Shown: in pieces, positions 5,181 through 28,821 of the stretch | Layout: the number at the start of each line of letters is the position of its first letter | How positions within the stretch are numbered: the first letter of the stretch is position 1 | Position numbers and translations under genes: made by a program | Virus record (IMG/VR): IMGVR_UViG_3300036762_000065 | Span: 1-64,000 of that record | Reading direction: 5' to 3' (one strand) | From: a virus | Lineage: Duplodnaviria > Caudoviricetes | Length of the DNA stretch: 64,000 bases | Notes under the pieces: generated by a model | Told to the model about the DNA's origin: nothing | What the model saw: the letters and a program-made list of their open reading frames with translations, nothing else | The model's database searches: none

Positions 5181-5750
5181 TTACAGTTTTGGACTCTCCA
5201 AAAAGTGGTTCAAGAAAGATTGTTCTCTTTTGTATGTATTAACATTGGCAAAATAAGGCAGATTGTATAAGGCGCACAGTCTATATATACCCATAAGACT
5301 ACAATCAAGCTCATGAACTTGTTTTGGTCTTAGGCTTTTTTTAGTAGAAGCCATTGCGTCTTTTAAATCGTTATAAAGATCATTTAGGTCTAAACTGCTA
5401 TTGTACCTATTTTTCCACGTAGAGGCAGTTAAAAAAGTAACGTCCAAATCATTAAACTCGTTTAGCAGTATTCCCAACATTAGGTTTATACACTCAACAG
5501 TTTTACCTTTTATTCCTCTTGTTTGATACCTCTCTGCAACAATGTGTGTAAAATTATACTTGTTGTGGAGTTCTACTATCTCATTACAGAATGCGTTGGC
5601 TTGTTCTTGTGCCTTTAGAACGTTATTGATAGTGCTTATCATCTTAGTGCCGACGACATTAACAACCAACTTTCCGTCAATCACTTTAGCACGTAGTATA
5701 GAGGCTGCAAAATTAACAGAGCCTGGGTCTAAAGAAAGTATTGTTATCAC
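5181..5750 (-). CDS. RuvC-like Holliday junction resolvase
   Basis: LSLDPGSVN, AERYQ, TWK and HELDC motifs of the RNase H fold. Confidence 0.8.
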   Translation of the reverse strand: MITILSLDPGSVNFAASILRAKVIDGKLVVNVVGTKMISTINNVLKAQEQANAFCNEIVELHNKYNFTHIVAERYQTRGIKGKTVECINLMLGILLNEFNDLDVTFLTASTWKNRYNSSLDLNDLYNDLKDAMASTKKSLRPKQVHELDCSLMGIYRLCALYNLPYFANVNTYKREQSFLNHFLESPKL

Positions 5751-5846
5751 TATTTTTGCCTTTAATTACTGTGTAAAAATAAATTAGAATACAGAGGTTC
5801 AATATTGCTAATTTATAATTATCTATTTACATTATCAGGAATAGTT

Positions 5847-6974
5847 ATGAGTAGAGTAACGAGAGGACCTGCGACTATTAAGAGGACTCATGCCAAAAAC
5901 TACATACAGAGAGAAGCCCAAAAGCGGCTGAACGAAACTGTGGCCCCTTTTAATACACAAACACACAACGCACTGGCTGTAAATGCGGTCGAAGTAGACT
6001 TGTATCAAATACAAGACAGGACAGGATACCCTTGTTCTTGTGAAAAAACAGAACACTTGCCCCAATACGAAAACATACCCAATTCTAACGTACCTCCTGT
6101 AGTACCTACGCAAAATAACGACAGTTCCGAAGGCGTTAAAATAAGATTGAAAGATAACGACCTATTCGGAGATAGTCGTGCAGAGCATATAATGGATGCT
6201 TTGGAATTCGATGTTAGCGGAGAAGATCATCCTTTCACATCGAATGATAAAACGTCAAAAGAGCCTGAAGGTAACGTAGATTATGAAGACGGTTTATTTC
6301 TAGGCAACAACATACAATGCGGCATATGCTATAGAGCAGGATTTCAGCCAGGCTATAAAGCGTGGGGGAAACAACGCCATGTACTTACTCACAAAGATAT
6401 AGAAACCGCTGTTGATTATTGGGTGGACACAACAAAATCACCGCACATCATACGTAAACAAGTACAAACAACGAAACCCTTTGTTGAATTTAAAATAATG
6501 GTACCTAAGTACTTCTCTCATTTAGTGTTTAGTGTTAGAAACAATGAGAAGCTTATCCAAGGGGAAAAGCTCTATGATGAATTTAACGAACAATTAACTC
6601 TAGGCCATTTTAAGACACATGCAGGTCAAGTTATAACAGTGCGAACACGCGCTAAAGAATTCACACATGTGGTAGTAGAATTTGACTTAGGCAACCAAAA
6701 ACTGGTTGCTAATATAGGAGGAGAATCGCAAACACTGGATTACAGTATGTTGGAAACAATAGGCAACATGTCCGTAGTGTTGCCTCCTTCTGTAAACGAG
6801 ATTAAATCTAATGACGTACTTATTATAAAGAAAAGGAGACTCGCATTAAAAATAATCGACAAGGAGCGTAAGATAACTAGCGACCAACGTAGATTAGAGT
6901 GGATGGTTCAAACTAGAGTACTTCAACCTACCGAAGCATTAAAATACATAGCCGAAGGGTTTAAATTGTTATAA
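5847..6974 (+). CDS. Probable virion neck/head-completion protein
   Basis: ATG at 5847 with AGGA SD; CSC...CGICYRAGFQPGY motif seen in myovirus head-closure proteins; weak functional call. Confidence 0.45.
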   Translation: MSRVTRGPATIKRTHAKNYIQREAQKRLNETVAPFNTQTHNALAVNAVEVDLYQIQDRTGYPCSCEKTEHLPQYENIPNSNVPPVVPTQNNDSSEGVKIRLKDNDLFGDSRAEHIMDALEFDVSGEDHPFTSNDKTSKEPEGNVDYEDGLFLGNNIQCGICYRAGFQPGYKAWGKQRHVLTHKDIETAVDYWVDTTKSPHIIRKQVQTTKPFVEFKIMVPKYFSHLVFSVRNNEKLIQGEKLYDEFNEQLTLGHFKTHAGQVITVRTRAKEFTHVVVEFDLGNQKLVANIGGESQTLDYSMLETIGNMSVVLPPSVNEIKSNDVLIIKKRRLALKIIDKERKITSDQRRLEWMVQTRVLQPTEALKYIAEGFKLL

Positions 6975-8839: not shown

Positions 8840-9019
8840 ATGATGAAAAAATTTATAGAATGGCTAGAGCGTTATTTTATGGCAGATATTTCTGAATACG
8901 AAGAATGTCCATATTGCACAAACGTTGAATTTGTAAGTTTCTGTTGCCACTGTTCAGGTAGCGGTTACGTTAGAATAGCAAACCAAGAGGAGATTGAAAA
9001 TGACACAACGCATGACTAA
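8840..9019 (+). CDS. Small zinc-finger protein (59 aa, below the ORF-track cutoff)
   Basis: MMKKFIEWLERYF...CPYC...CCHCSGSGYV; preceded by TGTAAATT and a GAGAG SD-like sequence. Confidence 0.65.
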   Translation: MMKKFIEWLERYFMADISEYEECPYCTNVEFVSFCCHCSGSGYVRIANQEEIENDTTHD

Positions 9020-9611
9020 AGGTGCTTCTACAGTAAAGGACTTAGCTAAAGCTAGTGCTGACTACAACCCGCGAACAATCACAGAAAGAGAACTAAACGG
9101 ACTTAAACATTCGTATGATACGTTTGGGGATTTGAGCGGTATCGTGTTGAACATACGTACAGGTACTCTTGTATCTGGACACCAGCGCATAAAAACACTT
9201 AAAGGAAAGAAAAGTCGTATTGAAAAACATCCGCACACAGATAGCTACGGTACGGTTGCCACAGGCTGGGTTGAATACAAATCTGCTAACGCTGACCATA
9301 TATCAAAGATTCCCTATCGTGAGGTAGACTGGTCTGACGGTAAAATGGAAAAAGCAGCTAACATTGCTGCTAATGCTCATGGAGGGCAATTTGATAAAGA
9401 CAAGCTCGGTGCTTTACTAGAAGAACTAGAGGATGCAACGTTCGATATAGAACTAACAGGACTAGACCCTTTAACCCTGCGTAGCCTTAGAACGGCCAAA
9501 TCTGAAGGCGATAGTGTTGATCGTGAAGAAAAGCACGAAGGCTTCAAAGAATACGATGAAAACAGTTTTGAACTTGATAATTGTTGTCCACGTTGTAAAT
9601 ATAAGTGGTAG
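9000..9611 (+). CDS. ParB/Srx-like domain protein with C-terminal Zn ribbon
   Basis: ADYNPR...LVSGHQR ParB-N motifs; terminal CPRCKYKW; GAGGAG SD before ATG 9000. Confidence 0.85.
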   Translation: MTQRMTKGASTVKDLAKASADYNPRTITERELNGLKHSYDTFGDLSGIVLNIRTGTLVSGHQRIKTLKGKKSRIEKHPHTDSYGTVATGWVEYKSANADHISKIPYREVDWSDGKMEKAANIAANAHGGQFDKDKLGALLEELEDATFDIELTGLDPLTLRSLRTAKSEGDSVDREEKHEGFKEYDENSFELDNCCPRCKYKW

Positions 9612-9614
9612 ATT

Positions 9615-11912
9615 ATGTCTAAATTAATAGAGTACAATAGCACTGAAATAAAAGCAGGTACTGGTGTTGCACGTAATCATTGTGCAATAGCAGAGCCTCT
9701 TGTTGGCGGGAAGTCTTTAGTTCCTTCAATGGAGCGTATTAACAAAAAGAAAAAAGACTTCACTGCAATGAGTTTTTTTGCAGGCTGCGGTGGTGCGTCT
9801 ATCGGAATGAAGATGGCAGGCTTTAATGTATTATACGCGAACGAGTTTATTCCTGCTGCGCAAGATACGTATAGACTAAATCATCCAGATACACTACTCG
9901 ATCCTCGTGATATACGAAAAGTGTGTCCTAAGAAACTGTTGAAAAAGCTTGGACTTAAGCGTGGAGAATTAGACCATCTCGATTTAAGTCCTCCTTGTTT
10001 TGCACCAGGTACAATGATACACACAAATCATGGATTTAAACGCATAGAAGATGTTGTTATAGGAGATAATGTTCTTACTCATACACAGGAGTTTCATCCT
10101 GTGTATGATACAATGGTTCGTAACTACTCAGGCCGCATGTATCGTCTAAAAACTATGGGCTCTATGACAACAGAGGTTACACCAGAGCACCCTTACTATG
10201 TGCGAAGAAAGAAAGGTATAAATAAATACTCATTAGATAAACCTATATGGGTAGAAGCGCAAAATCTACAGAGAGGTGATTATGTTGGTATAGCTGTAAA
10301 TCAGCTAAATGATAACAATCCTTGGTGTGGATTCTCAGACATACGAGAAAAAAGACCAGAACTTCGTGCATATAGATACAAATGGAAAAGTACTCACGTT
10401 GTATATAGGGAGTTAAATGCTTTGCCTATACATCTTAACGATTTTTGGTGGGTAGTAGGCAGATTTGTCGGAGATGGTTGGATAACACATAAAGATCAAC
10501 CAGAACATAGAAATCCAAGGAAACGTGTTAAGAGATTCGTTCGTATTTGTTGCGATAAAACAGACGGTGGAGTAGAACTTCGCGCTATAACAAGTCGATT
10601 GGACGCTTGTAATTTCTCCTATAAAATTTTGGAACGTAGAACGGCATATAGAATCTCTTTATTGAAATCCAGAGAGCTATGTGAATTTCTTTTGCAATTT
10701 GGACAAGGCGCTAAGAATAAGAGAATTCCAGGTTCAGTCCTCTCTATGCCTAAGAGTCTGCTATTGCGATTTATACAAGGTTATATATCTGCTGATGGTA
10801 GTCGACGTGGGTACGGTAAATTCAGATTCAATACTGTCAGTAGGGAATTAGCTATAGGCATAGTACACTGCATCAATAAAGTTTTTGGAAAATCTAGTGG
10901 GAAGATAGGATGTATATCGTCTGAAAAATTGATCAAATATGGATGCGGTGTAATAGAAGGTAGAAAAGTAAACGTATCCGATCGTTACGGTGCTTCATTT
11001 AACTTATTCTCCGATCCAGCGCGCGAACAGTTTATACAAGAAGAGGCTAATGGCATAATATGGGTTCCAGTACGCTCTATTGAGGAATTTCAATATAAAG
11101 GACGTGTATACAATATGTCTGTTGAGAACGATGAAACATACACGGCAAACAATTTAATTGTTCATAACTGTAAAGGCTTTTCTACAGCAGGTGTGCAAGA
11201 AGACGGTTGGAATAAAGAAGTAATGTATTCTGATGGTGTTTATCAACGAGTAGATGATTTGTTTGGTGAAGGCGTCAGGATGTTGATAGGACTAAAACCA
11301 AAAACGTTTCTTGCTGAAAATGTTGCTGGCCTTATCAAAGGTAGTTCGCGCGGTATGTTTATCGAAACACTTAACGATTTTAAAGCATGTGGCTATCGCG
11401 TTAAAGCAGCATTGATCGACCCTGTTGTGTTAGGAGCTCCACAGACGCGGGAGCGTATGATATTTATAGGAGTACGTAATGATCTAAAGATGGACCCTGT
11501 ATTTCCTACGTTGAAAAAACGCACTCCTGTTCGTGTTACTGATGTACTTCCGCATATACGTCTGATAAAAACAAAAGTTCGCAATATGCTAACATATGTT
11601 CCTGCAACAAGACCCAGCCCTACAATAGTAGCCTCAGATTTTGATACAGGGGAGAACGCTAGTTTTTCTTGTGGAGGTTGGTGCGAAGACGACCTAGGAC
11701 GTAGACGTAAATACAATCTATCTGAATTACGCAGATTGATGTGCTTTCCAGACGACTTCAAACTTAGCGGTACCCCTCGCCAACAGTGGGAAAGACTAGG
11801 TAGAAGTCATTTACCTCTTCAAGTATACCACTTAACAAAAGCTGTCCGCACAAACATACTAGAAGTTTACTACGACAGCAAAGGCGCGGATTATTCAGAC
11901 ACAATTAAATGA
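9615..11912 (+). CDS. DNA cytosine-C5 methyltransferase-family enzyme (probable carboxymethyltransferase), intein-containing
   Basis: Motif I FFAGCGG, IV PP|CKGFS, VI ENV, VIII QTRER, IX ELRRLMCFPDDF, and X LGRS in place of the usual GNS/GNA. Confidence 0.93.
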   Translation: MSKLIEYNSTEIKAGTGVARNHCAIAEPLVGGKSLVPSMERINKKKKDFTAMSFFAGCGGASIGMKMAGFNVLYANEFIPAAQDTYRLNHPDTLLDPRDIRKVCPKKLLKKLGLKRGELDHLDLSPPCFAPGTMIHTNHGFKRIEDVVIGDNVLTHTQEFHPVYDTMVRNYSGRMYRLKTMGSMTTEVTPEHPYYVRRKKGINKYSLDKPIWVEAQNLQRGDYVGIAVNQLNDNNPWCGFSDIREKRPELRAYRYKWKSTHVVYRELNALPIHLNDFWWVVGRFVGDGWITHKDQPEHRNPRKRVKRFVRICCDKTDGGVELRAITSRLDACNFSYKILERRTAYRISLLKSRELCEFLLQFGQGAKNKRIPGSVLSMPKSLLLRFIQGYISADGSRRGYGKFRFNTVSRELAIGIVHCINKVFGKSSGKIGCISSEKLIKYGCGVIEGRKVNVSDRYGASFNLFSDPAREQFIQEEANGIIWVPVRSIEEFQYKGRVYNMSVENDETYTANNLIVHNCKGFSTAGVQEDGWNKEVMYSDGVYQRVDDLFGEGVRMLIGLKPKTFLAENVAGLIKGSSRGMFIETLNDFKACGYRVKAALIDPVVLGAPQTRERMIFIGVRNDLKMDPVFPTLKKRTPVRVTDVLPHIRLIKTKVRNMLTYVPATRPSPTIVASDFDTGENASFSCGGWCEDDLGRRRKYNLSELRRLMCFPDDFKLSGTPRQQWERLGRSHLPLQVYHLTKAVRTNILEVYYDSKGADYSDTIK
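9996..11168 (+). mobile_element. Intein (391 aa) with LAGLIDADG homing endonuclease
   Basis: Begins CFAPGT; block B TPEHP; GRFVGDG and GYISADG LAGLIDADG motifs; ends VYNMSV...VHN|C. Confidence 0.95.
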
Positions 11913-11920
11913 GGTGATGT

Positions 11921-12187
11921 ATGGAAGCTTCATGCGTTGAGCAGTTTGAACTTTCGGAAATAAAGGATTTAATGGATCATATTGATCTGGTTGATAAACG
12001 AATTATCGCGTTGCTGAAAGTACGTATAGGTTTAAGTTTCGATATGGATGTAGCTAAAAAACAATTAGGAGTTAACTGTAACGATGTTAATCTAAGACAT
12101 ATTAAACTTAGAACGTATAGAAGCCTAGCCGTTAAATACGATATTGATCCTGATATAGTTGAGAGCGTATTTAAAGCATTAGTGTAA
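11921..12187 (+). CDS. Chorismate mutase (AroQ / CM_2)-like protein
   Basis: IDLVDKRIIALLKVR...AKKQLG...D...DPDIVESVF pattern; some catalytic positions diverged. Confidence 0.75.
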   Translation: MEASCVEQFELSEIKDLMDHIDLVDKRIIALLKVRIGLSFDMDVAKKQLGVNCNDVNLRHIKLRTYRSLAVKYDIDPDIVESVFKALV

Positions 12188-12190: not shown

Positions 12191-12223
12191 AATAGTGTGT
12201 TAAATAATTCAGGTGATAGTAAA

Positions 12224-12976
12224 ATGACTGTATTCAATAGCAGCGAACTTTGTGATATAAATATTGATAAGGTTGTTCCAAAAGAAAAATGGGAATTTGA
12301 CGGTGCTGTAGCAGACTGTTTTGATAATATGTTATCTAGGTCTATTCCTCTATATGATCAGATGCGAACTCTGTGTTATAAAATAGGAAGACGCTTTATA
12401 ACAGAAGAGTCTGCTATTATGGATTTAGGTGCCTCACGAGGAGAAGCCTTACGTCCTTTTATAGAAGACAATACAGCCAAGTCTTTTATAGCTATCGAAA
12501 TAGCAGAGCCTATGCGTAAAGTTCTGATAGAGTTATACGGAAATAATGATAAGTTTGTTTTAGCCGACATACCTTCAAGTGATCTACGTTCGTTTGATTC
12601 CGCTAATTACAAAGGCCAACATACTAATTTAATCTTATCAATTTTAACATTGCAGTTTACTCCTATTGAATATAGGATGCATATTATTCAAGCTATTTAC
12701 GACTCTCTTGAAGTAGGAGGAGCTTTTCTTTTTGTAGAAAAGGTGTTAGGAACCTCTCCTGTTATTGACAAAATTTTAGTTGATAACTATTATGAGTTTA
12801 AGAATGCCAACGGATATTCATACGATGACATACAGCGAAAGAAAGCCAGCTTAGAGGGTGTGTTGGTTCCTGTGACAGCCTCTTGGAATGAGGATATCTT
12901 AAAAGGAGCAGGCTTCAAACACGTTGATTGCTTCTATAGACATTTGAACTTCTGTGGATGGATTGCTATAAAATGA
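12224..12976 (+). CDS. cmoA: Carboxy-S-adenosyl-L-methionine synthase (CmoA-like)
   Basis: WEFDGAVADCFDNMLSRSIPLY, DLGASRG, LTLQF, EK and FKNANGYS...KKASLEGVL match CmoA signatures; ATG 12224 with AGGTG SD. Confidence 0.88.
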   Translation: MTVFNSSELCDINIDKVVPKEKWEFDGAVADCFDNMLSRSIPLYDQMRTLCYKIGRRFITEESAIMDLGASRGEALRPFIEDNTAKSFIAIEIAEPMRKVLIELYGNNDKFVLADIPSSDLRSFDSANYKGQHTNLILSILTLQFTPIEYRMHIIQAIYDSLEVGGAFLFVEKVLGTSPVIDKILVDNYYEFKNANGYSYDDIQRKKASLEGVLVPVTASWNEDILKGAGFKHVDCFYRHLNFCGWIAIK

Positions 12977-13848
12977 GCAGGTCTGAAACTACCAATAAAA
13001 TTGGACAAATACGCAGACAAAAAGTCCTTGACTCTTATGCAAGGGAGCCTAACATAAGGCAAGCCCTTCTTGATACTATGGGATTTATACCGAAAGATCA
13101 GAAAGTGTGTGTCTTCTTGTCTGGAGGTATAGATAGTCATGTTATTCTTTTTGCAGCTATGGAGTCAGGACTCGATGTGAGCACTACGTCCTTTACACTA
13201 GACACTCACGATAGTACAGACTTTAAAATAGCGAAAGCGACCTCAGAAGAGTTCAAGTTAGACTTCAATCCTGTTCGTTTAGACTCATCTGAAAAGCACT
13301 TAAAGAAGTGGGTTCGTTACGCCACAGGTACTTTAGGACTTGATTCTAAAAGTTCTATAGAATGTACGTGGCCACTTTATGTAACCATTCTTGCAAACAA
13401 AGACAAGAAGCATTTGATGATGGGGCTTGGAGGCGATTCTTATTTCTTACTAGCCAAAGGCTACTCTATGCACTGTAGAGATATGGTTGCAGAAGTAAGA
13501 AATAAAGCATTCAGAAGATCATTGATACAGAATTCTGTCGTAAAGAATTTAGCTTTCCGTAACGAACAAGTTGTACATCTGCCGTTTTTTGAACTCGGTA
13601 GGGTGTATACAGAACTTGAAAACACAACAGATTACAGTAAACTTAATACGCCTCAAAAATCGTACTATCATAGTGCTTTTCCTGAGTTGCGTAAAAGGTG
13701 TAAAATAAGAGCACACCAGAACTTCCAGTTAGGAGATACCTGCATATCTAAAAACTTCAGCGATAAACTTCTCAACTCGGATTGGAATACTAGAAACAGT
13801 AAAGCAATTATAGCAATATATAATGATGTTATTGCTAATAAAGTTTAA
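12973..13848 (+). CDS. Asparagine synthetase-like ATP-dependent amide ligase (no glutaminase domain)
   Basis: PP-loop LSGGIDS, GLGGDSYF and LPFF; ATGA overlap with the cmoA stop. Confidence 0.82.
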   Translation: MSRSETTNKIGQIRRQKVLDSYAREPNIRQALLDTMGFIPKDQKVCVFLSGGIDSHVILFAAMESGLDVSTTSFTLDTHDSTDFKIAKATSEEFKLDFNPVRLDSSEKHLKKWVRYATGTLGLDSKSSIECTWPLYVTILANKDKKHLMMGLGGDSYFLLAKGYSMHCRDMVAEVRNKAFRRSLIQNSVVKNLAFRNEQVVHLPFFELGRVYTELENTTDYSKLNTPQKSYYHSAFPELRKRCKIRAHQNFQLGDTCISKNFSDKLLNSDWNTRNSKAIIAIYNDVIANKV

Positions 13849-13948: not shown

Positions 13949-14053
13949 ATGAAAAATTATGAGCCAGAAATGACTTCTAAGTTCGATGAGCCAGAAGAGC
14001 CAGAAATGACTTCTAAGTTCGATGAGCCAGAAGAGCCAGAAGTTGTTGCCTAG
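13949..14053 (+). CDS. 34-aa acidic repeat peptide MKNY(EPEMTSKFDEPE)2EPEVVA
   Basis: AAGAGG SD, its own promoter-like motif and terminator; 36-bp direct repeat at 13961-14032. Confidence 0.7.
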   Translation: MKNYEPEMTSKFDEPEEPEMTSKFDEPEEPEVVA

Positions 14054-14073: not shown

Positions 14074-14098
14074 AAGGCGGGCAATTGCCCGCCTTTTT
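14074..14098 (+). terminator. Rho-independent terminator
   Basis: AAGGCGGGC-AATT-GCCCGCCTT followed by TTT. Confidence 0.85.
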
Positions 14099-14115: not shown

Positions 14116-14742
14116 ATGAAAAACTTAAACATAATACCTTTGATGTTAAAACCGAAATCAATATGTCTACGTGAAGGTGACGCTCAGATATACTCTTTAC
14201 AAAATTTTCTATCTGAAAAGGTGTGTAAAGAGCTTATAGAAGAGTCAAAACATTTTCTTACACCTAGTAAGGTAGGTTCGGAGTACGGGGTAATTGTCGA
14301 TAGTTCTGTTAGGACAAGCTCGACAGCAAAGTTAAGTGAGGTTTCTGATAATCCTATGATTGCCGAAGTTCATAGTATGTTATTCGACCTATACGGATAC
14401 TTTGAATTGCCTGGGGATCCTGTCTCTGTACATAACTATCAACTTGGCCAAGAGTTTAAAGATCACCACGACTTTCACGACACAGAAAAAAGAAAAGAAC
14501 GTATAGCAAAAGAAGGTCAACGTACTTGGACATTCGTTGTTTACTTAGATGAAGATTTCGAAGGCGGCGAGACTGTATTTCCAGAGCTTGATCTTACTGT
14601 AGTACCGAAGACAGGACAGCTACTTGCTTGGAACAACCTGTCTTCTACAGGTGAAGGTAATACAAAGACACTACATAGATCAAACCCTGTAACAAAAGGA
14701 GAAAAGAATATCATAACCAAATGGTTCAGATCGTTTATATGA
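14116..14742 (+). CDS. 2OG-Fe(II) oxygenase, prolyl 4-hydroxylase-like
   Basis: NFLS...RTS, Y.LGQEFKDHHD (HxD), RTWTFVVYL, GGETVFP, TLH and KNIITKW. Confidence 0.9.
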   Translation: MKNLNIIPLMLKPKSICLREGDAQIYSLQNFLSEKVCKELIEESKHFLTPSKVGSEYGVIVDSSVRTSSTAKLSEVSDNPMIAEVHSMLFDLYGYFELPGDPVSVHNYQLGQEFKDHHDFHDTEKRKERIAKEGQRTWTFVVYLDEDFEGGETVFPELDLTVVPKTGQLLAWNNLSSTGEGNTKTLHRSNPVTKGEKNIITKWFRSFI

Positions 14743-14758
14743 TGTTCGATAAAACACT

Positions 14759-15199
14759 ATGAATCCTTTTACGCAATTAAAAACACAAGTTAGAAGTGCG
14801 TTAGAGAAAGAAACTAAGCTTTCTCCAGAAGAACGAAAACAACACCAATGGCAATTCCTTACTACAGTAAATGGAGTCACTTATATTGTAGGTAAAGGCG
14901 GCGCTAATACAATGTTCTATATGATAGGCAAAGGCGAACGTAAGATATGTATGCCGAAAGAAATGCTCGATGTTATAGGAACATGGGGAACATCTAAGTA
15001 TCCTATGTACGCTATATGCAAGAAGAAAGGAAGATACACACATGGACCAAATCCTTCATTAGAAGCAATGTTTGATGAGGATCCTGCTGTAGGTAGTTTC
15101 CTCGTAGGGTTTACTAACGATGGGCGTGTTCATCGTCTTTATAAGTATGTTAGTGGACTTATGGGATCGGAATGGGTAGAATTTAAAGCGAGCAAATAA
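14759..15199 (+). CDS. Hypothetical protein
   Basis: 146-aa ORF, TAATG-coupled to the next gene. Confidence 0.75.
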   Translation: MNPFTQLKTQVRSALEKETKLSPEERKQHQWQFLTTVNGVTYIVGKGGANTMFYMIGKGERKICMPKEMLDVIGTWGTSKYPMYAICKKKGRYTHGPNPSLEAMFDEDPAVGSFLVGFTNDGRVHRLYKYVSGLMGSEWVEFKASK

Positions 15200-15948
15200 T
15201 GCGTATAATAACTTGGAATGTAAACAGTGTTAGGGCACGACACACTCATGTTGAATCGCTGCTACATAACGAGAAGCCTAGTGTTTTATGTATGCAGGAA
15301 ACCAAGGTTGTTAATAACGAATACCCGGACTTCCCTAGCTATTCAGGAAGCTGTGTTGCTAATGGGCAGAAATCATACAATGGAGTCTCTGCCCATTGCA
15401 TTAAGCCTCCGTCCGATGTTATTGTTTCTCCTTGGCAACACGGAGAAAAGAGAGTTCTTGCTTTCACATACAACAATATAAGATTTATAAATCTATATGT
15501 TCCAATGGGAGGCAAAGATGAAAACGCTTACTCTGAAAAACTATTGTGGTTAGACAACCTTACGTTTTTTATACTCGAACAAAAGCAAGTGTATAAACAT
15601 GTTTGTATTCTAGGTGATTTTAATATCTGTCCTACAGATGATGATGTTTGGGATCCTGTTGCATGGAAAGGCAGAGTAACCTGTACAAAACCGGAACGTG
15701 ATTGGTTTAAAAATATTATAGCCTGTGGTTTTAAAGACACTCTAAAAGAACACACGGATTCAAGTGACTTTACTTGGTGGAACTATAGACGTAATGGATA
15801 CCAGCGCAATCACGGCTTAAGAATAGACTTTGTTCTTATGACCGACGATCTTGCGTCTTGTGTTGTACGTGCGGAAGTGCTTACACAATATAGGGAGATG
15901 GAAAAACCTTCAGACCATGCGCCTGTACTCGTGGAGATACGAAAATGA
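15199..15948 (+). CDS. xth: Exodeoxyribonuclease III / AP endonuclease
   Basis: TWNVNS, QETK, GQKSYNGV, GDFN, FTWWNYR, GLRIDF, SDHAP. Confidence 0.95.
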   Translation: MRIITWNVNSVRARHTHVESLLHNEKPSVLCMQETKVVNNEYPDFPSYSGSCVANGQKSYNGVSAHCIKPPSDVIVSPWQHGEKRVLAFTYNNIRFINLYVPMGGKDENAYSEKLLWLDNLTFFILEQKQVYKHVCILGDFNICPTDDDVWDPVAWKGRVTCTKPERDWFKNIIACGFKDTLKEHTDSSDFTWWNYRRNGYQRNHGLRIDFVLMTDDLASCVVRAEVLTQYREMEKPSDHAPVLVEIRK

Positions 15949-16457: not shown

Positions 16458-16761
16458 TACCGATATACCTGTAAAGCAAAAACTAAGCGACTTGTCTTGG
16501 AACACTAGGTGGAAACCTATATTCTCAATAGTGTACGTTGTTATTTGCTTGTTTGACTTTGTAGTAGTGCCTGCATTTATAGGAATGACAAGAGAACCTT
16601 ATAGCTCTTTAATACCTATAGTTAAAGACCTGGCGCCGGAAGCACAGTTGATGGTATTGCAGAGGCAAGCTTGGCAACCTCTAACCTTGCAAGGTAGCGG
16701 ACTTATTCATGTTGCTTTCGGAGCAATACTTGGTGTAGTTGCTTGGAAAAGTAAAGACTAA
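16432..16761 (+). CDS. Holin-like membrane protein (GTA 3TM holin family-like)
   Basis: WKP...YVVICLFDF and WQPLTLQGSGLIHVAFGAILG. Confidence 0.65.
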   Translation: MTPTTTTDSTDIPVKQKLSDLSWNTRWKPIFSIVYVVICLFDFVVVPAFIGMTREPYSSLIPIVKDLAPEAQLMVLQRQAWQPLTLQGSGLIHVAFGAILGVVAWKSKD

Positions 16762-16774
16762 TCGGAGAATAAAA

Positions 16775-17761
16775 ATGATTGCAGTAAAAGATGATGATTA
16801 TATTATTGGAGACCATAGAGGAAGAATGGCGTTGATGCTAGTACTTAACGCTAAGTCCGGACGTTGTGTTTTAGAAAAGACTTTAATAGCGGATGAACCT
16901 GAGCATGTTGTTGTAAAGGAAGAGCAAATATACTGTAATTTAGGTCAAGAGCCTCTTTCCGGAAAAGCGTTCGGAATAGATATTAAACCTTACATAAAGA
17001 CGATAGAAACAAAGAGTTACGGACCTATACATATATTTCGTAAACTAGAAGACGGCGATTTAACTGCCCTTAAAAAAGCACTTAAAGCCGTATACTCTTT
17101 GTTTGAGTCCAAAGCAACAGTTTCTTTTTTGCCTTTATACTCTACCAACATAGAGCCTGCTAAAGGTAAGTATGCAGGCAGTTACAAGTTCAAACAGAAG
17201 GGTCTTGAATCGTTTGATACTATGCATTTGCATCCTAAAGTATTAAACGATATAGAGTTTAATAAATACATAATTGCACATGAGTGGTCACACGGTATTT
17301 GGTACAGATGTGTCCCGTTCCAGTTACGTGCTAAGTGGCTAAATCTATATCAGAAGCGGCTACTGTTGTCCAACATATCAGAAAAAGAACTAGAAGAGTT
17401 GTGTATTGATGTTGTTAACTACGAAGGTGGACTTGGTGATTACTGCAAGGAGGTAGGTGATGATCATGTTAAATCTGTTATTAAAGAAGTTCTTATATAC
17501 TTTAAACGCTACCACCACATGGATCAACGTAGCGTTGAACTTATGTTACATGAAGATAGCGGCAAGCTTTCGGAGATTTGGCCTACAAGCGCAAAACTAA
17601 CTGAAGAACGTGCGGATATTTCTGAGTATAGTTTAAAGAATGTAGAGGAGTTCTTCGCAGAGTCCTTTGCAAATTACATTCTAGGGCGTATGTTACCTAA
17701 AGACGTACAAAAAGGAATTGATGCAACTGTTAAAAAACTAAGCTCTGTAACTTACGATTAA
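16775..17761 (+). CDS. Zincin-like metallopeptidase domain protein
   Basis: HEWSH (HExxH) plus EEFFAESF; ATG 16775 with GGAG SD. Confidence 0.7.
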   Translation: MIAVKDDDYIIGDHRGRMALMLVLNAKSGRCVLEKTLIADEPEHVVVKEEQIYCNLGQEPLSGKAFGIDIKPYIKTIETKSYGPIHIFRKLEDGDLTALKKALKAVYSLFESKATVSFLPLYSTNIEPAKGKYAGSYKFKQKGLESFDTMHLHPKVLNDIEFNKYIIAHEWSHGIWYRCVPFQLRAKWLNLYQKRLLLSNISEKELEELCIDVVNYEGGLGDYCKEVGDDHVKSVIKEVLIYFKRYHHMDQRSVELMLHEDSGKLSEIWPTSAKLTEERADISEYSLKNVEEFFAESFANYILGRMLPKDVQKGIDATVKKLSSVTYD

Positions 17762-25436: not shown

Positions 25437-26498
25437 ATGAAGTATCTAACAGGAATAGCTACAAGTGATTGGCACTTTGGCGGACTACAGAAGCATTTTT
25501 CAAATCATGTTGAACGTACTGTACATGAACTAGATAAAATTTACAGGTACGCTATTGATAACGGTATCAAGCATGTGTTTGTTCCAGGCGATATTTCAGA
25601 TTCTCCAAACATGCCGTGGGAAATTTATATACAACTTGTACTGTTTTTAAAGAAGTATGATGGTATTATTCACACTCACTATATATGCGGTAACCATGAC
25701 TTTTCCGACTTGTCGAAAACAAGTATGGATTTCCTAAGTGTGCTGCAACAGCAAAACTTCTTTAAAACATTCCATCTGTATTTACAAGCAGAGCAGGTAG
25801 TTATAGACGGAGTGACTGTAAATTTCTTACCGTACCCTTCCACAGAAAGCCTCACTTCAGAAAATCCGTGTTTAAACTTCTCTCATGTTACGTATAACGG
25901 AGCACTAGGAGACAACGGACGTAAGTTAAGAGTTAAAGATGAGTTCATACAAGACCCTCGTGATTATAACATTAGCGGTCATATTCATCTATACCAGCAT
26001 CTAAAATCCAAACGTGCTGTATATTGCGGCAACCCGTTTCAAAAGAACTTCGGTGAGAGTTTGCCAAAAGGATTCATACACTTCAGAGCGCGACAGTCTA
26101 GTAAAAGTGAAGTTTTGGAATTTAAACATAAGTTCGTCAACAACGAGCCTGATTTTGAACTCCGTAATCTTGTTATAAACAATACAAGTGACTTTGCAGC
26201 GTTAAAAAAATCAAACGGAATAAGATATAAGTTGTTTGTTGACCCTTCGGTGTTGGTGCCTAAAAATCTACTTATCGAGTATCCGAATATAACCGGCGGC
26301 ATATTTGATATTAAAGGTCAGAAGAAGGCACACGAGGATGATGTTGTTGAACGAACAGTTAGTTCAATAGATAAAGTTAGCTCTACTAATGTACGTAAAG
26401 GACTTACTTCTTTTATGCTTGAAAAAGGATTTGAAAAACTACACATAAAACAAGCACATTTAGAAGTTAAAAAAGCTATGAATGAATTGGGAATTTAA
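25437..26498 (+). CDS. SbcD/Mre11-like metallophosphoesterase nuclease
   Basis: SDWH, PGDISD, GNHD, GHIH, YCGNP..KNFGE. Confidence 0.92.
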   Translation: MKYLTGIATSDWHFGGLQKHFSNHVERTVHELDKIYRYAIDNGIKHVFVPGDISDSPNMPWEIYIQLVLFLKKYDGIIHTHYICGNHDFSDLSKTSMDFLSVLQQQNFFKTFHLYLQAEQVVIDGVTVNFLPYPSTESLTSENPCLNFSHVTYNGALGDNGRKLRVKDEFIQDPRDYNISGHIHLYQHLKSKRAVYCGNPFQKNFGESLPKGFIHFRARQSSKSEVLEFKHKFVNNEPDFELRNLVINNTSDFAALKKSNGIRYKLFVDPSVLVPKNLLIEYPNITGGIFDIKGQKKAHEDDVVERTVSSIDKVSSTNVRKGLTSFMLEKGFEKLHIKQAHLEVKKAMNELGI

Positions 26499-26642
26499 TG
26501 ATATATTTTCTGGCAGTACAACCAGTTAGTGCCTGATTTTAATAATTTAACTACGTAAGCATCCAGTTCAATGTCCTTTGGCGCTGAAGGTTGACTGGCT
26601 GTTACTTCAGTTCCAAAAGTTAACTTATTATGGAGAATTATT

Positions 26643-27644
26643 ATGGCTGTTTCTAAAAAAACAACCGCCGCAAAACCGGCAGCCAGTAAAGGTGCTAAGG
26701 TTAAAAAGGTCACTTCTGTAACCCAGAAGACTAACAAAGTAAAACTGGACATGAGTCCTGAAGCCGTTAAAGCAAGAAAAGAGGCTAAACTAGAGAGAAA
26801 AAAGCCGGCCGCTAAGGCAGCCGCTAAGCTTGCAAACAAGAAAAAAAGAGCTACTATGACGCCTGCTGAAAAGAAAAAAGAAGCAGAACGTAACGTTGTT
26901 CTTCGTGCTCGCCGTACAGGTAAGGACGAGAAGCAAGCTCTAGCCGACTTCAGAGCTAAGAAATCAGGTAAGCCCACTACAGCAGCTAAGAACCGTGCTC
27001 AACGTGTGGCTATTCGTAAGGCACATGCGGCAAAACGTGCAGGGTTTACAGAAGCACGTAAAAAAATTGCTGATGCTTATAAGGCAGCGCGTGAAAAGGT
27101 AAAAACACTGCCTGTTGAGAAACGCCGTGCGGCAAACGCAGCTTTGAAAACAAAGTATGTTAATGCAAAGCAAGCACTAGCTAAAAAACGTGAAGCGGCA
27201 GCGGCAGCGGCAAAAACTAAAGCAGCTAAGTATGCACGAACAGCACGTTCGTCTAAAGCTCCTGCTCCTGTTAAAGCCGCACCTACTACTGTAGCGAGAA
27301 AAGCTCGGACTCCTAAGGCAGCTCCAGCCGCAGCTCCTGCTGCGAAAGCTCCAAGAAAAGCTCGGACTCCTAAGGCAGCCGCAGCTCCTGCTGCGAAAGC
27401 TCCAAGAAAGGCCCGGACTCCTAAGGCAGCTCCTGCTGCTCCGGCAGCTAAAGCCCCAAGAAAGGCCCGGACTCCTAAGGCAGCTCCTGCTGCTCCGGCA
27501 GCTAAAGCCCCAAGAAAGGCCCGGACTCCTAAGGCAGCTCCTGCTGCTCCTGCTGCGAAAGCTCCAAGAAAAGCTCGGACTCCTAAGGCTGCTCCAGCCG
27601 CAGCTCCTGCTGCGAAAGTAGCAAGACGCGGCGCAAAAAAGTAA
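26643..27644 (+). CDS. Histone H1-like basic nucleic-acid-binding protein
   Basis: Extremely K/A/R/P-rich; about six KAPRKARTPKAAPAAPAA repeats; GGAG SD; followed by a terminator. Confidence 0.8.
   Translation: MAVSKKTTAAKPAASKGAKVKKVTSVTQKTNKVKLDMSPEAVKARKEAKLERKKPAAKAAAKLANKKKRATMTPAEKKKEAERNVVLRARRTGKDEKQALADFRAKKSGKPTTAAKNRAQRVAIRKAHAAKRAGFTEARKKIADAYKAAREKVKTLPVEKRRAANAALKTKYVNAKQALAKKREAAAAAAKTKAAKYARTARSSKAPAPVKAAPTTVARKARTPKAAPAAAPAAKAPRKARTPKAAAAPAAKAPRKARTPKAAPAAPAAKAPRKARTPKAAPAAPAAKAPRKARTPKAAPAAPAAKAPRKARTPKAAPAAAPAAKVARRGAKK
27295..27618 (+). repeat. About six tandem ~54-bp coding repeats (K-A-R-T-P-K-A core)
   Basis: Invariant CGGACTCCTAAGGC core in each unit. Confidence 0.9.
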
Positions 27645-27676
27645 AATTAGGTTAGATTCTTTAATTTTACAACTGG

Positions 27677-27712
27677 AATGCGAACCTTGCTTTAAGTTTG
27701 GTTCGCATTTTT
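27677..27712 (+). terminator. Rho-independent terminator
   Basis: AATGCGAACC...GGTTCGCATT followed by TTT. Confidence 0.75.
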
Positions 27713-27732
27713 CATTTATAGGTGTTTAAAAA

Positions 27733-28821
27733 ATGAATTATCTACAGTATATAGATGACGGCAGTAAGAACGTAGATTCTTTGCGAAAGGCACGTACCTT
27801 TAATGAACTTACAGGTATAGTAACATCTATAAAAGGTGCTGTGTCTCAAATAAAAAGTAAATTGGTACGCCAGTTGTCGAAACTAGGACAACAAGAAGTA
27901 CAAATAAACGATTCTCCTGTTGATTTTTCAAGCCTGTCATCTTTATATTCTGACATACAACATTTAAGGTGCTACAGCCTAGAGTTGGAGTACGCTAAAT
28001 CCATAGCATACAATATAAACGGCGAAAACAAGAAGCAAAAATTCGACAAGCTGGTTACAGAGCAATGTTCCGAATGTAATACTGTTTTGAACTTGGTATA
28101 TAAATACATAGACTCTGTAGGTTCGAGACAAGAGCCTAAAGCCCTTGTTCAATACTATACTGTTCTACAAAAGTATTTAGGTAAGCTTGTTAAGTATAGT
28201 ACTGTTAAAAGCTTTGTACTTCCTTCTCCGGACAAACACACTTCATTCAGTAGGCATATAATATTATTTAACGTAGTTACAGAAAAAGGCTTCATAATAC
28301 CTAATGTGATTATATGCATATCTGCCGAAACAAACTACGCCAACGGATTTTTCTATACCTTATCTTTTCCAAGTGAGGTTGAGGTTAAAAGCGTTTCATA
28401 CCCGTTCAATACAAAAGAAGAAATGTTGAGTTTGGTAGAAGATAAGCTAAGTTCCATCTTAGGCGCAGACTTAAAGCCGATTAACTCCATAAACGACAAC
28501 TTATATAAACTCGACGGAGTTAATAGTGTAAGAACCACAGACAGTTCATTACAGGTAGAACTTGATAGCGGCATATCTGCATCTGAGGTTAATAACGTAC
28601 TTACCAAACTGTTGCCTATGATGTATGCGTTAACAGGAGTAAGCAACACAAGAACCGACGTATTGCACCGTATGATACTAAGCAGTAGCGGCAATAGAAT
28701 AATCGAATTTGTTTTAAAGGGTAGAACGTTGAACGAGCGTAGTCATTTAACTAATTTAAAGAAGATATTACCGTTATCTAAAAAATCAATTTCCTCTATA
28801 CTGAATATGCTGGATGCCTAA
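27733..28821 (+). CDS. Hypothetical protein (probable paralogue of the next gene)
   Basis: 362-aa ORF; shares LDGV...TDS...V.L and terminal H...SSSG segments with 28814..30280. Confidence 0.75.
   Translation: MNYLQYIDDGSKNVDSLRKARTFNELTGIVTSIKGAVSQIKSKLVRQLSKLGQQEVQINDSPVDFSSLSSLYSDIQHLRCYSLELEYAKSIAYNINGENKKQKFDKLVTEQCSECNTVLNLVYKYIDSVGSRQEPKALVQYYTVLQKYLGKLVKYSTVKSFVLPSPDKHTSFSRHIILFNVVTEKGFIIPNVIICISAETNYANGFFYTLSFPSEVEVKSVSYPFNTKEEMLSLVEDKLSSILGADLKPINSINDNLYKLDGVNSVRTTDSSLQVELDSGISASEVNNVLTKLLPMMYALTGVSNTRTDVLHRMILSSSGNRIIEFVLKGRTLNERSHLTNLKKILPLSKKSISSILNMLDA

Follow-up and report, generated by a model that had tools for sequence, protein, structure and literature searches.

Which amine would be joined to the DNA of a phage by an asparagine synthetase-like ligase that carries no glutaminase domain? 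The question is raised by a gene in the 64,000-nucleotide stretch analysed here, termed the window (positions 1 to 64,000 of the IMG/VR virus record IMGVR_UViG_3300036762_000065), which belongs to the complete record of an uncultured jumbo phage, 241,706 bp long and bounded by direct terminal repeats. The ligase encoded there probably amidates 5-carboxymethylcytosine (5cxmC) in the phage DNA as a member of the CmoY family, a reading that draws on comparison with a characterised relative, and it is a divergent branch of an already known system rather than a new kind of enzyme. The gene and its two signature motifs are placed as follows.

12973-13848, plus strand: CmoY-family ATP-dependent amide ligase with an AsnB-type synthetase domain only, 291 amino acids (aa), assigned from homology, model and gene context
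13120-13137, plus strand: PP-loop SGGIDS, the ATP pyrophosphatase motif, residues 55-60
13423-13437, plus strand: GLGGD motif, residues 156-160

The open reading frame (ORF) spans 12958-13848 on the plus strand, 296 aa, and the residue numbers of both motifs follow that 296-aa frame. The likely start codon is the ATG at 12973, which shares bases with the TGA that ends CmoA just upstream (ATGA); the database form of the protein (P0002) has 291 aa, and the alignments of homologues begin at this Met. In the ligase, labelled P0001 in the alignments and tree, the PP-loop residues S55, G57, D59 and S60 are invariant or nearly so among 142 family members. In an alignment of hidden Markov models (HMM), read together with column statistics, GLGGD falls opposite AsnB GEGSD and beta-lactam synthetase GYGAD, with Leu at the site of AsnB Glu348. 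The protein matches the Pfam model Asn_synthase (E 1.8e-11), the CmoY-family profile finds E. coli AsnB (E 3.5e-15), and in PHROGs the ligase falls in phrog_26038 (E 4e-108), a group without functional annotation. Its AlphaFold2 model, based on 142 homologues, has a pLDDT of 96.9 and a pTM of 0.92. In Foldseek and VIA-align comparisons the model matches human ASNS over residues 223-523 (Z 21.5) and E. coli AsnB over residues 207-503 (Z 19.3), then carbapenam synthetase (CarA, Z 19.2), beta-lactam synthetase (17.8) and TsnB9 (16.9), with other PP-loop enzymes forming the next tier at Z of about 11. Because of the Pfam match, the AsnB-profile match, the model and these Z values, the ligase is a synthetase domain far beyond chance. 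A preliminary description of this DNA had read a protein of about 291 aa with LSGGIDS and GLGGD at 12973-13848, and ORF, motifs, Pfam and model all bear it out.

The same description had remarked on the missing N-terminal nucleophile (Ntn, Cys1) glutaminase domain, and this too holds. Only about 45 residues precede the PP-loop, and the DNA further upstream is the CmoA gene. The structural alignments contain no counterpart to the glutaminase domain, the match being confined to the C-terminal synthetase domain (AsnB 207-503 only). In the complete 241,706-bp genome GATase_7 (PF13537) gave no match, while the control detected it in 14/14 genomes, and the single copy of the Asn_synthase domain is the window ligase itself. 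With a glutaminase domain missing from protein and genome alike, the nucleophile would not be glutamine-derived ammonia.

The synthetase fold shared with AsnB (PDB 1CT9) and human ASNS (6GQ3/9B6C) covers about 255 residues (Z 19.3-21.5), and conservation extends to the PP-loop, the GxGxD Asp and the EK-motif Lys; the differences are the missing Ntn domain, the replacement of the aspartate-binding elements and the acyl substrate, for which a DNA base is predicted here in place of aspartate. The AsnB fold is likewise used by beta-lactam synthetase, carbapenam synthetase and the lasso-peptide cyclases to couple an adenylated carboxylate to an amine that does not derive from glutamine, and the GYGAD of beta-lactam synthetase resembles the GxGxD-type loop of the window ligase. 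In those enzymes, however, a degenerate N-terminal domain persists and the substrates are small molecules or peptides, whereas in the window ligase that domain is wholly missing and the protein is part of a DNA-modification module.

A module of this type was described in December 2025 by Yang et al. (Nat Commun; PMC12783734) for the Synechococcus phage S-B43. In that system, CmoA makes carboxy-S-adenosylmethionine (carboxy-SAM), CmoX makes 5cxmC, and SpCmoY, a glutaminase-less asparagine-synthetase homologue, joins glycine to 5cxmC with ATP, in E. coli as well as in vitro; the product, 5-glycylcarboxymethylcytosine (5gcxmC), was found in S-B43 virion DNA, and for its nucleoside 5gcxmdC a transition from m/z 343.1 to 227.1 is reported. 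A survey of 2,251 ligases in the same paper gave a largest cluster around SpCmoY, with glycine-carboxylate-binding residues, and a second cluster with a fused glutaminase domain, which is biochemically uncharacterised; for clusters whose pocket residues differ, the authors consider other amines probable (PMC12783734). A search of the literature after that paper found no later one on 5cxmC derivatives in phages, and a jumbo-phage comparative genomics paper (PMC7824862) makes no mention of CmoA, carboxy-SAM or asparagine synthetase.

The window ligase belongs to the family of SpCmoY (UniProt A0A514ABJ0), which it matches in BLASTP at E 2e-15 with 27% identity over 260 residues, and in tblastn it finds the cmoY locus of S-B43. 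Each of the two proteins consists of an AsnB-type synthetase domain alone, about 270-290 aa long, which has the PP-loop but lacks a glutaminase domain, and each is encoded beside CmoA and CmoX; they have the motifs SGG.DS, K..IEC.WP, G.G.D, N.P.QK and H.N.QLG in common, and the same mechanism is proposed for both, in which the 5cxmC carboxylate would be adenylated and then attacked by an amine. An exhaustive HMMER search yielded 357 cluster representatives of the family, mostly stand-alone proteins of 260-300 aa, and the positions conserved family-wide include the PP-loop, K131, E135, C136, G156, D160, R181, P209, K234, H253 and Q257. In the HMM alignment, the aspartate-binding TTIRAS of AsnB gives way to the family motif K..IEC.WP. 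Of the AsnB residues Glu348, D351 and Glu352, whose equivalents in ASNS belong to an acidic cluster holding the amino group of the aspartyl substrate (PMC6748925), only D351 is kept in the window ligase, the other two being Leu and Ser. In three representatives one polypeptide chain combines a C5-methylase domain at the N-terminus with a ligase domain, and two of these (P0046 and P0054) carry SPPC, the signature Arg and the ER.GR.VPP motif; such natural CmoX-ligase fusions tie the family to CmoX independently of gene order.

Ligase-domain fusions were noted in P0046, P0054, P0063, P0108, P0133 and P0134, those with CmoX-type methylases occurring in both orders, and two ligase fusions carry a domain of the uracil-DNA-glycosylase superfamily (weak Pfam matches, E about 1e-4). 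A search for longer homologues, in which the glutaminase-fused cluster was sought, returned only ordinary cellular asparagine synthetases (E 1e-11 to 1e-6).

The gene context leads to the same family. The ligase is the fifth gene of a transcription unit that runs from a ParB-like gene through CmoX, chorismate mutase, CmoA, the ligase and a small peptide ORF to a terminator, all on the plus strand and tightly packed.

8994-9611, plus strand: ParB-like (ParBc) protein, first gene of the operon (phrog_620, E 9e-30)
9615-11912, plus strand: CmoX-type DNA cytosine C5-carboxymethyltransferase, 765 aa, intein-bearing (Pfam DNA_methylase, E 1e-35)
about 9996-11168, plus strand: CmoX intein with a LAGLIDADG domain, directly before the catalytic Cys of SPPC
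11921-12187, plus strand: AroQ-type chorismate mutase, 88 aa (Pfam CM_2, E 1.5e-7, score 32 bits, cut-off 27)
12197-12976, plus strand: CmoA-like carboxy-SAM synthase (TIGR00740, E 7e-39; phrog_4752, E 4e-71)
13949-14053, plus strand: 34-aa ORF of acidic Glu-Pro-Glu repeats with an AAGAGG-type ribosome-binding site, last ORF ahead of the terminator
14074-14095, plus strand: intrinsic-terminator-like hairpin (9 pairs, 7 of them GC, with a T tail), the strongest of the region, closing the ParB-to-peptide unit

CmoX also matches the Pfam models Intein_splicing, Hint and LAGLIDADG. Its sequence runs from SPP into the intein, which opens with Cys and closes with His-Asn, and on to a further Cys, so that the +1 residue of the intein is the catalytic Cys. 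In motif X it has Arg (GRS), matching R350 of SpCmoX, the carboxylate-binding Arg, where ordinary enzymes have Asn, and it is the sole C5-methylase homologue in the genome. The window CmoA is 29% identical to SpCmoA (E 2e-29). Related loci were searched for with a 19-sequence alignment of the window clade, and loci of relatives bear L numbers below. The ParB-CmoX-CmoA-ligase core occurs also in PaBG, in the Erwinia phage Yoloswag, where CmoX lies 13 kb from the rest of the core, and in nine metagenomic loci. The ParB-like gene stands upstream of CmoX in PaBG, L008, L009, L013 and L014 as well, and ParBc proteins adjoining CmoX were noted in PMC12783734. Compared with phage records by megablast, the module gave no match. 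It differs from the S-B43 system in adding a chorismate mutase, the Pro-repeat peptide, a prolyl 4-hydroxylase (P4H), a protein here called p146 and the CmoX intein, none of which is mentioned in PMC12783734.

Taken with the published chemistry, these genes suggest a pathway. The phage chorismate mutase would make prephenate, and CmoA would convert SAM and prephenate to carboxy-SAM; spliced CmoX would then put the carboxymethyl group on cytosine C5 of the phage DNA, giving 5cxmC. At the PP-loop the ligase would adenylate the carboxylate of 5cxmC with ATP, releasing pyrophosphate, and an amine would attack the acyl-adenylate to form an amide with release of adenosine monophosphate. The supply of prephenate to CmoA is a likely role for the chorismate mutase. 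NCBIfam chorismate mutase models score the protein below their cut-offs; CM_2 genes are found in L027 (inside the module, 5718-6161) and in L025 (135-428, 7 kb upstream); with the window, at least three jumbo phages have such a gene within the Cmo module or close to it.

The preliminary description had proposed an amide ligase that acts on a carboxymethyl handle of DNA without a fused glutaminase. The CmoX/CmoA operon, the SpCmoY family and the CmoX fusions uphold that proposal, but not its newness, the concept having been published in December 2025; the reasoning about an unknown amine re-derives a published idea that is already answered, for S-B43, as glycine.

An ordinary metabolic gene would be another explanation, either an ammonia-dependent asparagine synthetase, as database annotations of homologues ("asparagine synthase") would have it, or a QueC-like deazapurine enzyme, as weak matches of the Pfam and NCBIfam QueC models over the PP-loop might suggest (Pfam ThiI also matches weakly, and all of them in the PP-loop region only). 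Such a gene is hardly credible here. With the asparagine synthetase model TIGR01536 the score is 39.8 bits where the cut-off is 267.1, and the QueC model TIGR00364 scores 21.4 bits against 150.3, confined to the PP-loop. The Asp-binding residues are replaced, TGT/DpdA was not found in the genome, and the ligase is located in a CmoX/CmoA operon.

Several points weigh against the assignment of the window ligase to 5cxmC amidation. Its identity to SpCmoY, the sole characterised member, is low (24-27%), and both the activity and the substrate proposed for it are carried over by analogy from that homologue. The window CmoA, at 133.9 bits, falls under the NCBIfam TIGR00740 equivalog cut-off of 193. 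CmoX activity would require splicing of the intein, and a spliced, active CmoX is a prediction. Lastly, the core of the window clade is without two conserved basic positions (the equivalents of SpCmoY K134 and R208), has Leu for SpCmoY G130 and gains R186, R187, R215 and K228; since it has changed at conserved positions, its substrate handling probably differs from that of the SpCmoY clade.

In the tree of 162 rows, the window ligase falls in a 17-row clade with support of 99, nested in clades of 20 rows (95) and 22 rows (99), while SpCmoY has its own 13-row clade, also at 99; identity between the two clades is 19-29%. The positions at which the core of the window clade departs from the others are these (P0001 numbering).

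Position 118: Trp in the core clade, Asp in the rest of the family
Position 164: Leu in the core clade, Gly in all members of the SpCmoY clade (G130), and Gly, Ala or Cys elsewhere
Position 168: Ser in the core clade and Gly in P0001, Lys in the rest of the family (SpCmoY K134)
Position 173: Cys in the core clade, Tyr or Phe in the rest of the family
Positions 186 and 187: Arg and Arg in the core clade, small or polar residues elsewhere
Position 215: Arg in the core clade, acidic in the SpCmoY clade and mixed elsewhere
Position 228: Lys in the core clade, Glu in the rest of the family
Position 238: Asn or His in the core clade, Arg elsewhere (SpCmoY R208; the Arg of EKHILR in AsnB)

The model of the ligase also has an extra N-terminal helix, residues 10-28, in the window clade. 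Because conserved positions and neighbouring genes differ from those of the SpCmoY clade, a chemically different end product in the window clade is possible.

For the amine, several candidates come into question. Glycine, which would make the base 5gcxmC as in S-B43, is the sole amine proven for the family, and the basic residues K167, R181 and K234, universal in the family, are retained in the window ligase. Nevertheless, the separate clade, the two lost basic positions, the change from Gly to Leu near the GxGxD loop and accessory genes unlike those of S-B43 make glycine itself a tentative candidate. A free alpha-amino acid of whatever kind, glycine included, is better placed and comes fairly close to an even chance, and some other small amine is conceivable, if on the unlikely side.

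Free ammonia would yield the neutral primary amide 5-carbamoylmethylcytosine, the charge-neutralising option of the preliminary description. AsnB-type synthetase domains accept free ammonia, with ammonium chloride serving as a nitrogen source (PMC6748925), and the bulkier Leu at 164 together with the loss of two basic residues would suit a smaller, uncharged nucleophile. One comparison is the glutaminase-fused A0A7T0Q3R0 cluster of PMC12783734, whose members are phage proteins associated with CmoX and CmoA and presumed to amidate 5cxmC with ammonia; yet they have a glutamine-hydrolysing domain of their own, and the window clade has none. AsnB E348, which governs ammonia attack, is moreover Leu in the window ligase, and neutralisation of the added negative charge is without precedent, 5gcxmC, the sole known product, retaining a free carboxylate. 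Ammonia is a poor candidate, and the amines not named in this text share a similarly small remainder of probability.

The accessory genes raise a less conventional source of the amine. Beyond the terminator lies the next gene of the module.

14116-14742, plus strand: prolyl 4-hydroxylase-type 2-oxoglutarate (2OG)-Fe(II) oxygenase (Pfam 2OG-FeII_Oxy_3, E 3e-15)

This oxygenase is a genuine prolyl 4-hydroxylase homologue by sequence, matching P4H of B. anthracis (E 1.4e-25), human C-P4H alpha-2 (E 5e-21), and the enzymes of Chlamydomonas (E 5e-16) and PBCV-1 (E 6e-9). The ligase is followed by a small Pro-repeat ORF and the 2OG oxygenase in the window and in six sequence-distinct relatives (Yoloswag, the Erwinia phage Y3, L008, L009, L025 and L027). 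The small ORF has 25-49 aa, made of Glu-Pro-Glu, Asp-Pro-Ala or Asn-Pro-Glu units according to the genome, with the X-Pro-X periodicity retained. In relatives it starts at the following positions.

L008: Pro-repeat ORF from 10980
L009: Pro-repeat ORF from 6546
L010: Pro-repeat ORF from 10967
L011: Pro-repeat ORF from 10934
L025: Pro-repeat ORF from 8204
L027: Pro-repeat ORF from 7983

Ligase, peptide and P4H remain adjacent as one block even where CmoA, CmoX and p146 have moved; peptide and P4H lie between the ligase and CmoA in L008 and L009, for example. Cmo genes or a Pro-repeat ORF stand beside P4H in 4/80 viral P4H loci, all four of this lineage. The simplest reading is that P4H hydroxylates the Pro-repeat peptide, its probable substrate. 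Less likely, and set aside, is a role for the 2OG oxygenase in ALKBH8-like hydroxylation of the modified base or in PAM-like oxidative trimming of a glycyl amide, the protein being a close P4H homologue that always comes with a Pro-repeat ORF.

AsnS-like lasso-peptide cyclases couple the N-terminal amine of a peptide to an adenylated carboxylate. By that likeness, the amine could be the alpha-amine of the co-transcribed peptide with its acid- or amide-Pro repeats, or of a fragment of it, possibly after hydroxylation by P4H. The block is contiguous in the six relatives despite their differing repeats, the window peptide sits between the ligase and the operon terminator, and in the other 76 viral P4H loci neither Cmo genes nor such an ORF adjoin P4H. 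The proposal is nonetheless doubtful. In its variable ligase motifs P0018, a protein associated with peptide and P4H, agrees with P0019/L014, where DUF1611 is present instead, and not with the core clade, and P0023, of the same clade, has neither peptide nor P4H. The N-termini of the peptides are not conserved, and a polyanionic 4-kDa peptide at many DNA sites would be hard to square with packaging. A complex prediction of the ligase with the 34-aa peptide returned a score of 0.00 (mark 0.32), which speaks neither for nor against binding. A peptide- or hydroxyproline-bearing DNA base, made by way of a P4H-modified peptide, is a bold and improbable end product, of which an amine other than glycine would be the milder form.

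The same neighbourhood could also be read with no part for DNA. An AsnS-like enzyme beside a small acidic peptide is an arrangement like that of ribosomally synthesised and post-translationally modified peptides (RiPPs), and with P4H the ligase might then form a unit that amidates or cyclises Asp or Glu carboxylates of the peptide in the manner of lasso-peptide cyclases. This is very unlikely. All family-wide CmoY motifs are kept, including those of clades that have no peptide, the ligase is translationally coupled to CmoA, and CmoX-ligase fusions link the family to DNA. The lasso B-protease (PF13471) and a PqqD-like RiPP recognition element were not found in the complete genome, and controls found these rare families in 2/14 and 4/14 genomes, respectively. 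The assignment as a 5cxmC amide ligase of the CmoY family is retained for the window protein.

In sister lineages the place of peptide and P4H is taken by a DUF1611 protein (PF07755 and PF17396), immediately upstream of the ligase, as in L013, L014 and the Erwinia phage Alexandra.

L013, 8872-9978: DUF1611 gene
L014, 8905-9981: DUF1611 gene
L023 (Erwinia phage Alexandra), 6777-7832: DUF1611 gene

This replacement suggests that the sister lineages may make yet another end product. L026 and S-B43 have neither peptide-P4H nor DUF1611.

The Salmonella phage Sen-NF (L003, PV359490.1) has the oxygenase directly after the ligase, in a record without the intergenic DNA in which a peptide ORF might be visible. 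That record, of 108.5 kb, has abutting coding sequences without intergenic bases and no CmoA or CmoX, and it looks like a partial or concatenated jumbo-phage record and not a complete genome. The search for CmoA gave no match in Sen-NF or in the L012 contig, and both records look incomplete.

Inteins vary among the relatives. The CmoX of Yoloswag (record 26399-28441; L006, L007) has one at the same site, 28% identical, and CmoX is uninterrupted in PaBG, L009, L013 and L014. In L008 the CmoX match is in pieces, with a frameshift possible, and L013 has an intein in a neighbouring 491-aa ORF.

Downstream of the oxygenase lies a further gene that travels with the module in jumbo phages.

14759-15199, plus strand: p146, 146 aa (phrog_23597, E 2e-39)

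Homologues of p146 adjoin CmoA or CmoY in almost every jumbo-phage form of the module, namely in PaBG, L008, L009, L013, L014, L026, L027, Yoloswag and Y3. The protein has no Pfam match. Its model (pLDDT 88) found no clear relative in a fold search, the best Z values being 7.1 (YkuJ) and 5.9 (Pur-alpha), with no Foldseek match under E 0.05. The motif GK.G.NT..Y is invariant in p146, and the protein is built of two similar halves, each of helix plus sheet. Directly downstream of p146, at 15199-15948, is a full-length homologue of exodeoxyribonuclease III (Xth; TIGR00195, E 1e-65, above cut-off), and a protein like Zn-metallopeptidases is encoded at 16739-17761 (phrog_17197, E 3e-78; its Pfam match, to ATLF, is weak). 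Its gene is found again, within a few genes of the module, in PaBG, L008, L009, L013 and L026.

The CmoA/CmoX/CmoY system was described for one cyanophage, and the window represents a jumbo-phage lineage of the ligase that includes the cultivable Erwinia phages Yoloswag and Y3, whose ligases are 57% identical. To that system it adds a chorismate mutase, a Pro-repeat peptide with its P4H, p146, DUF1611 in the sister lineages and an intein that would gate CmoX. The chorismate mutase bears on the supply of prephenate, whose availability is listed as an open issue in PMC12783734. Yoloswag and Y3 can be grown, and the end product of the clade is therefore directly accessible to nucleoside mass spectrometry. 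If the amine is other than glycine, one more natural DNA base would come to light, and with it a ligase specificity that is new for tools of DNA labelling, and if the base bears a peptide or hydroxyproline, it would be a kind of DNA hypermodification not yet described.

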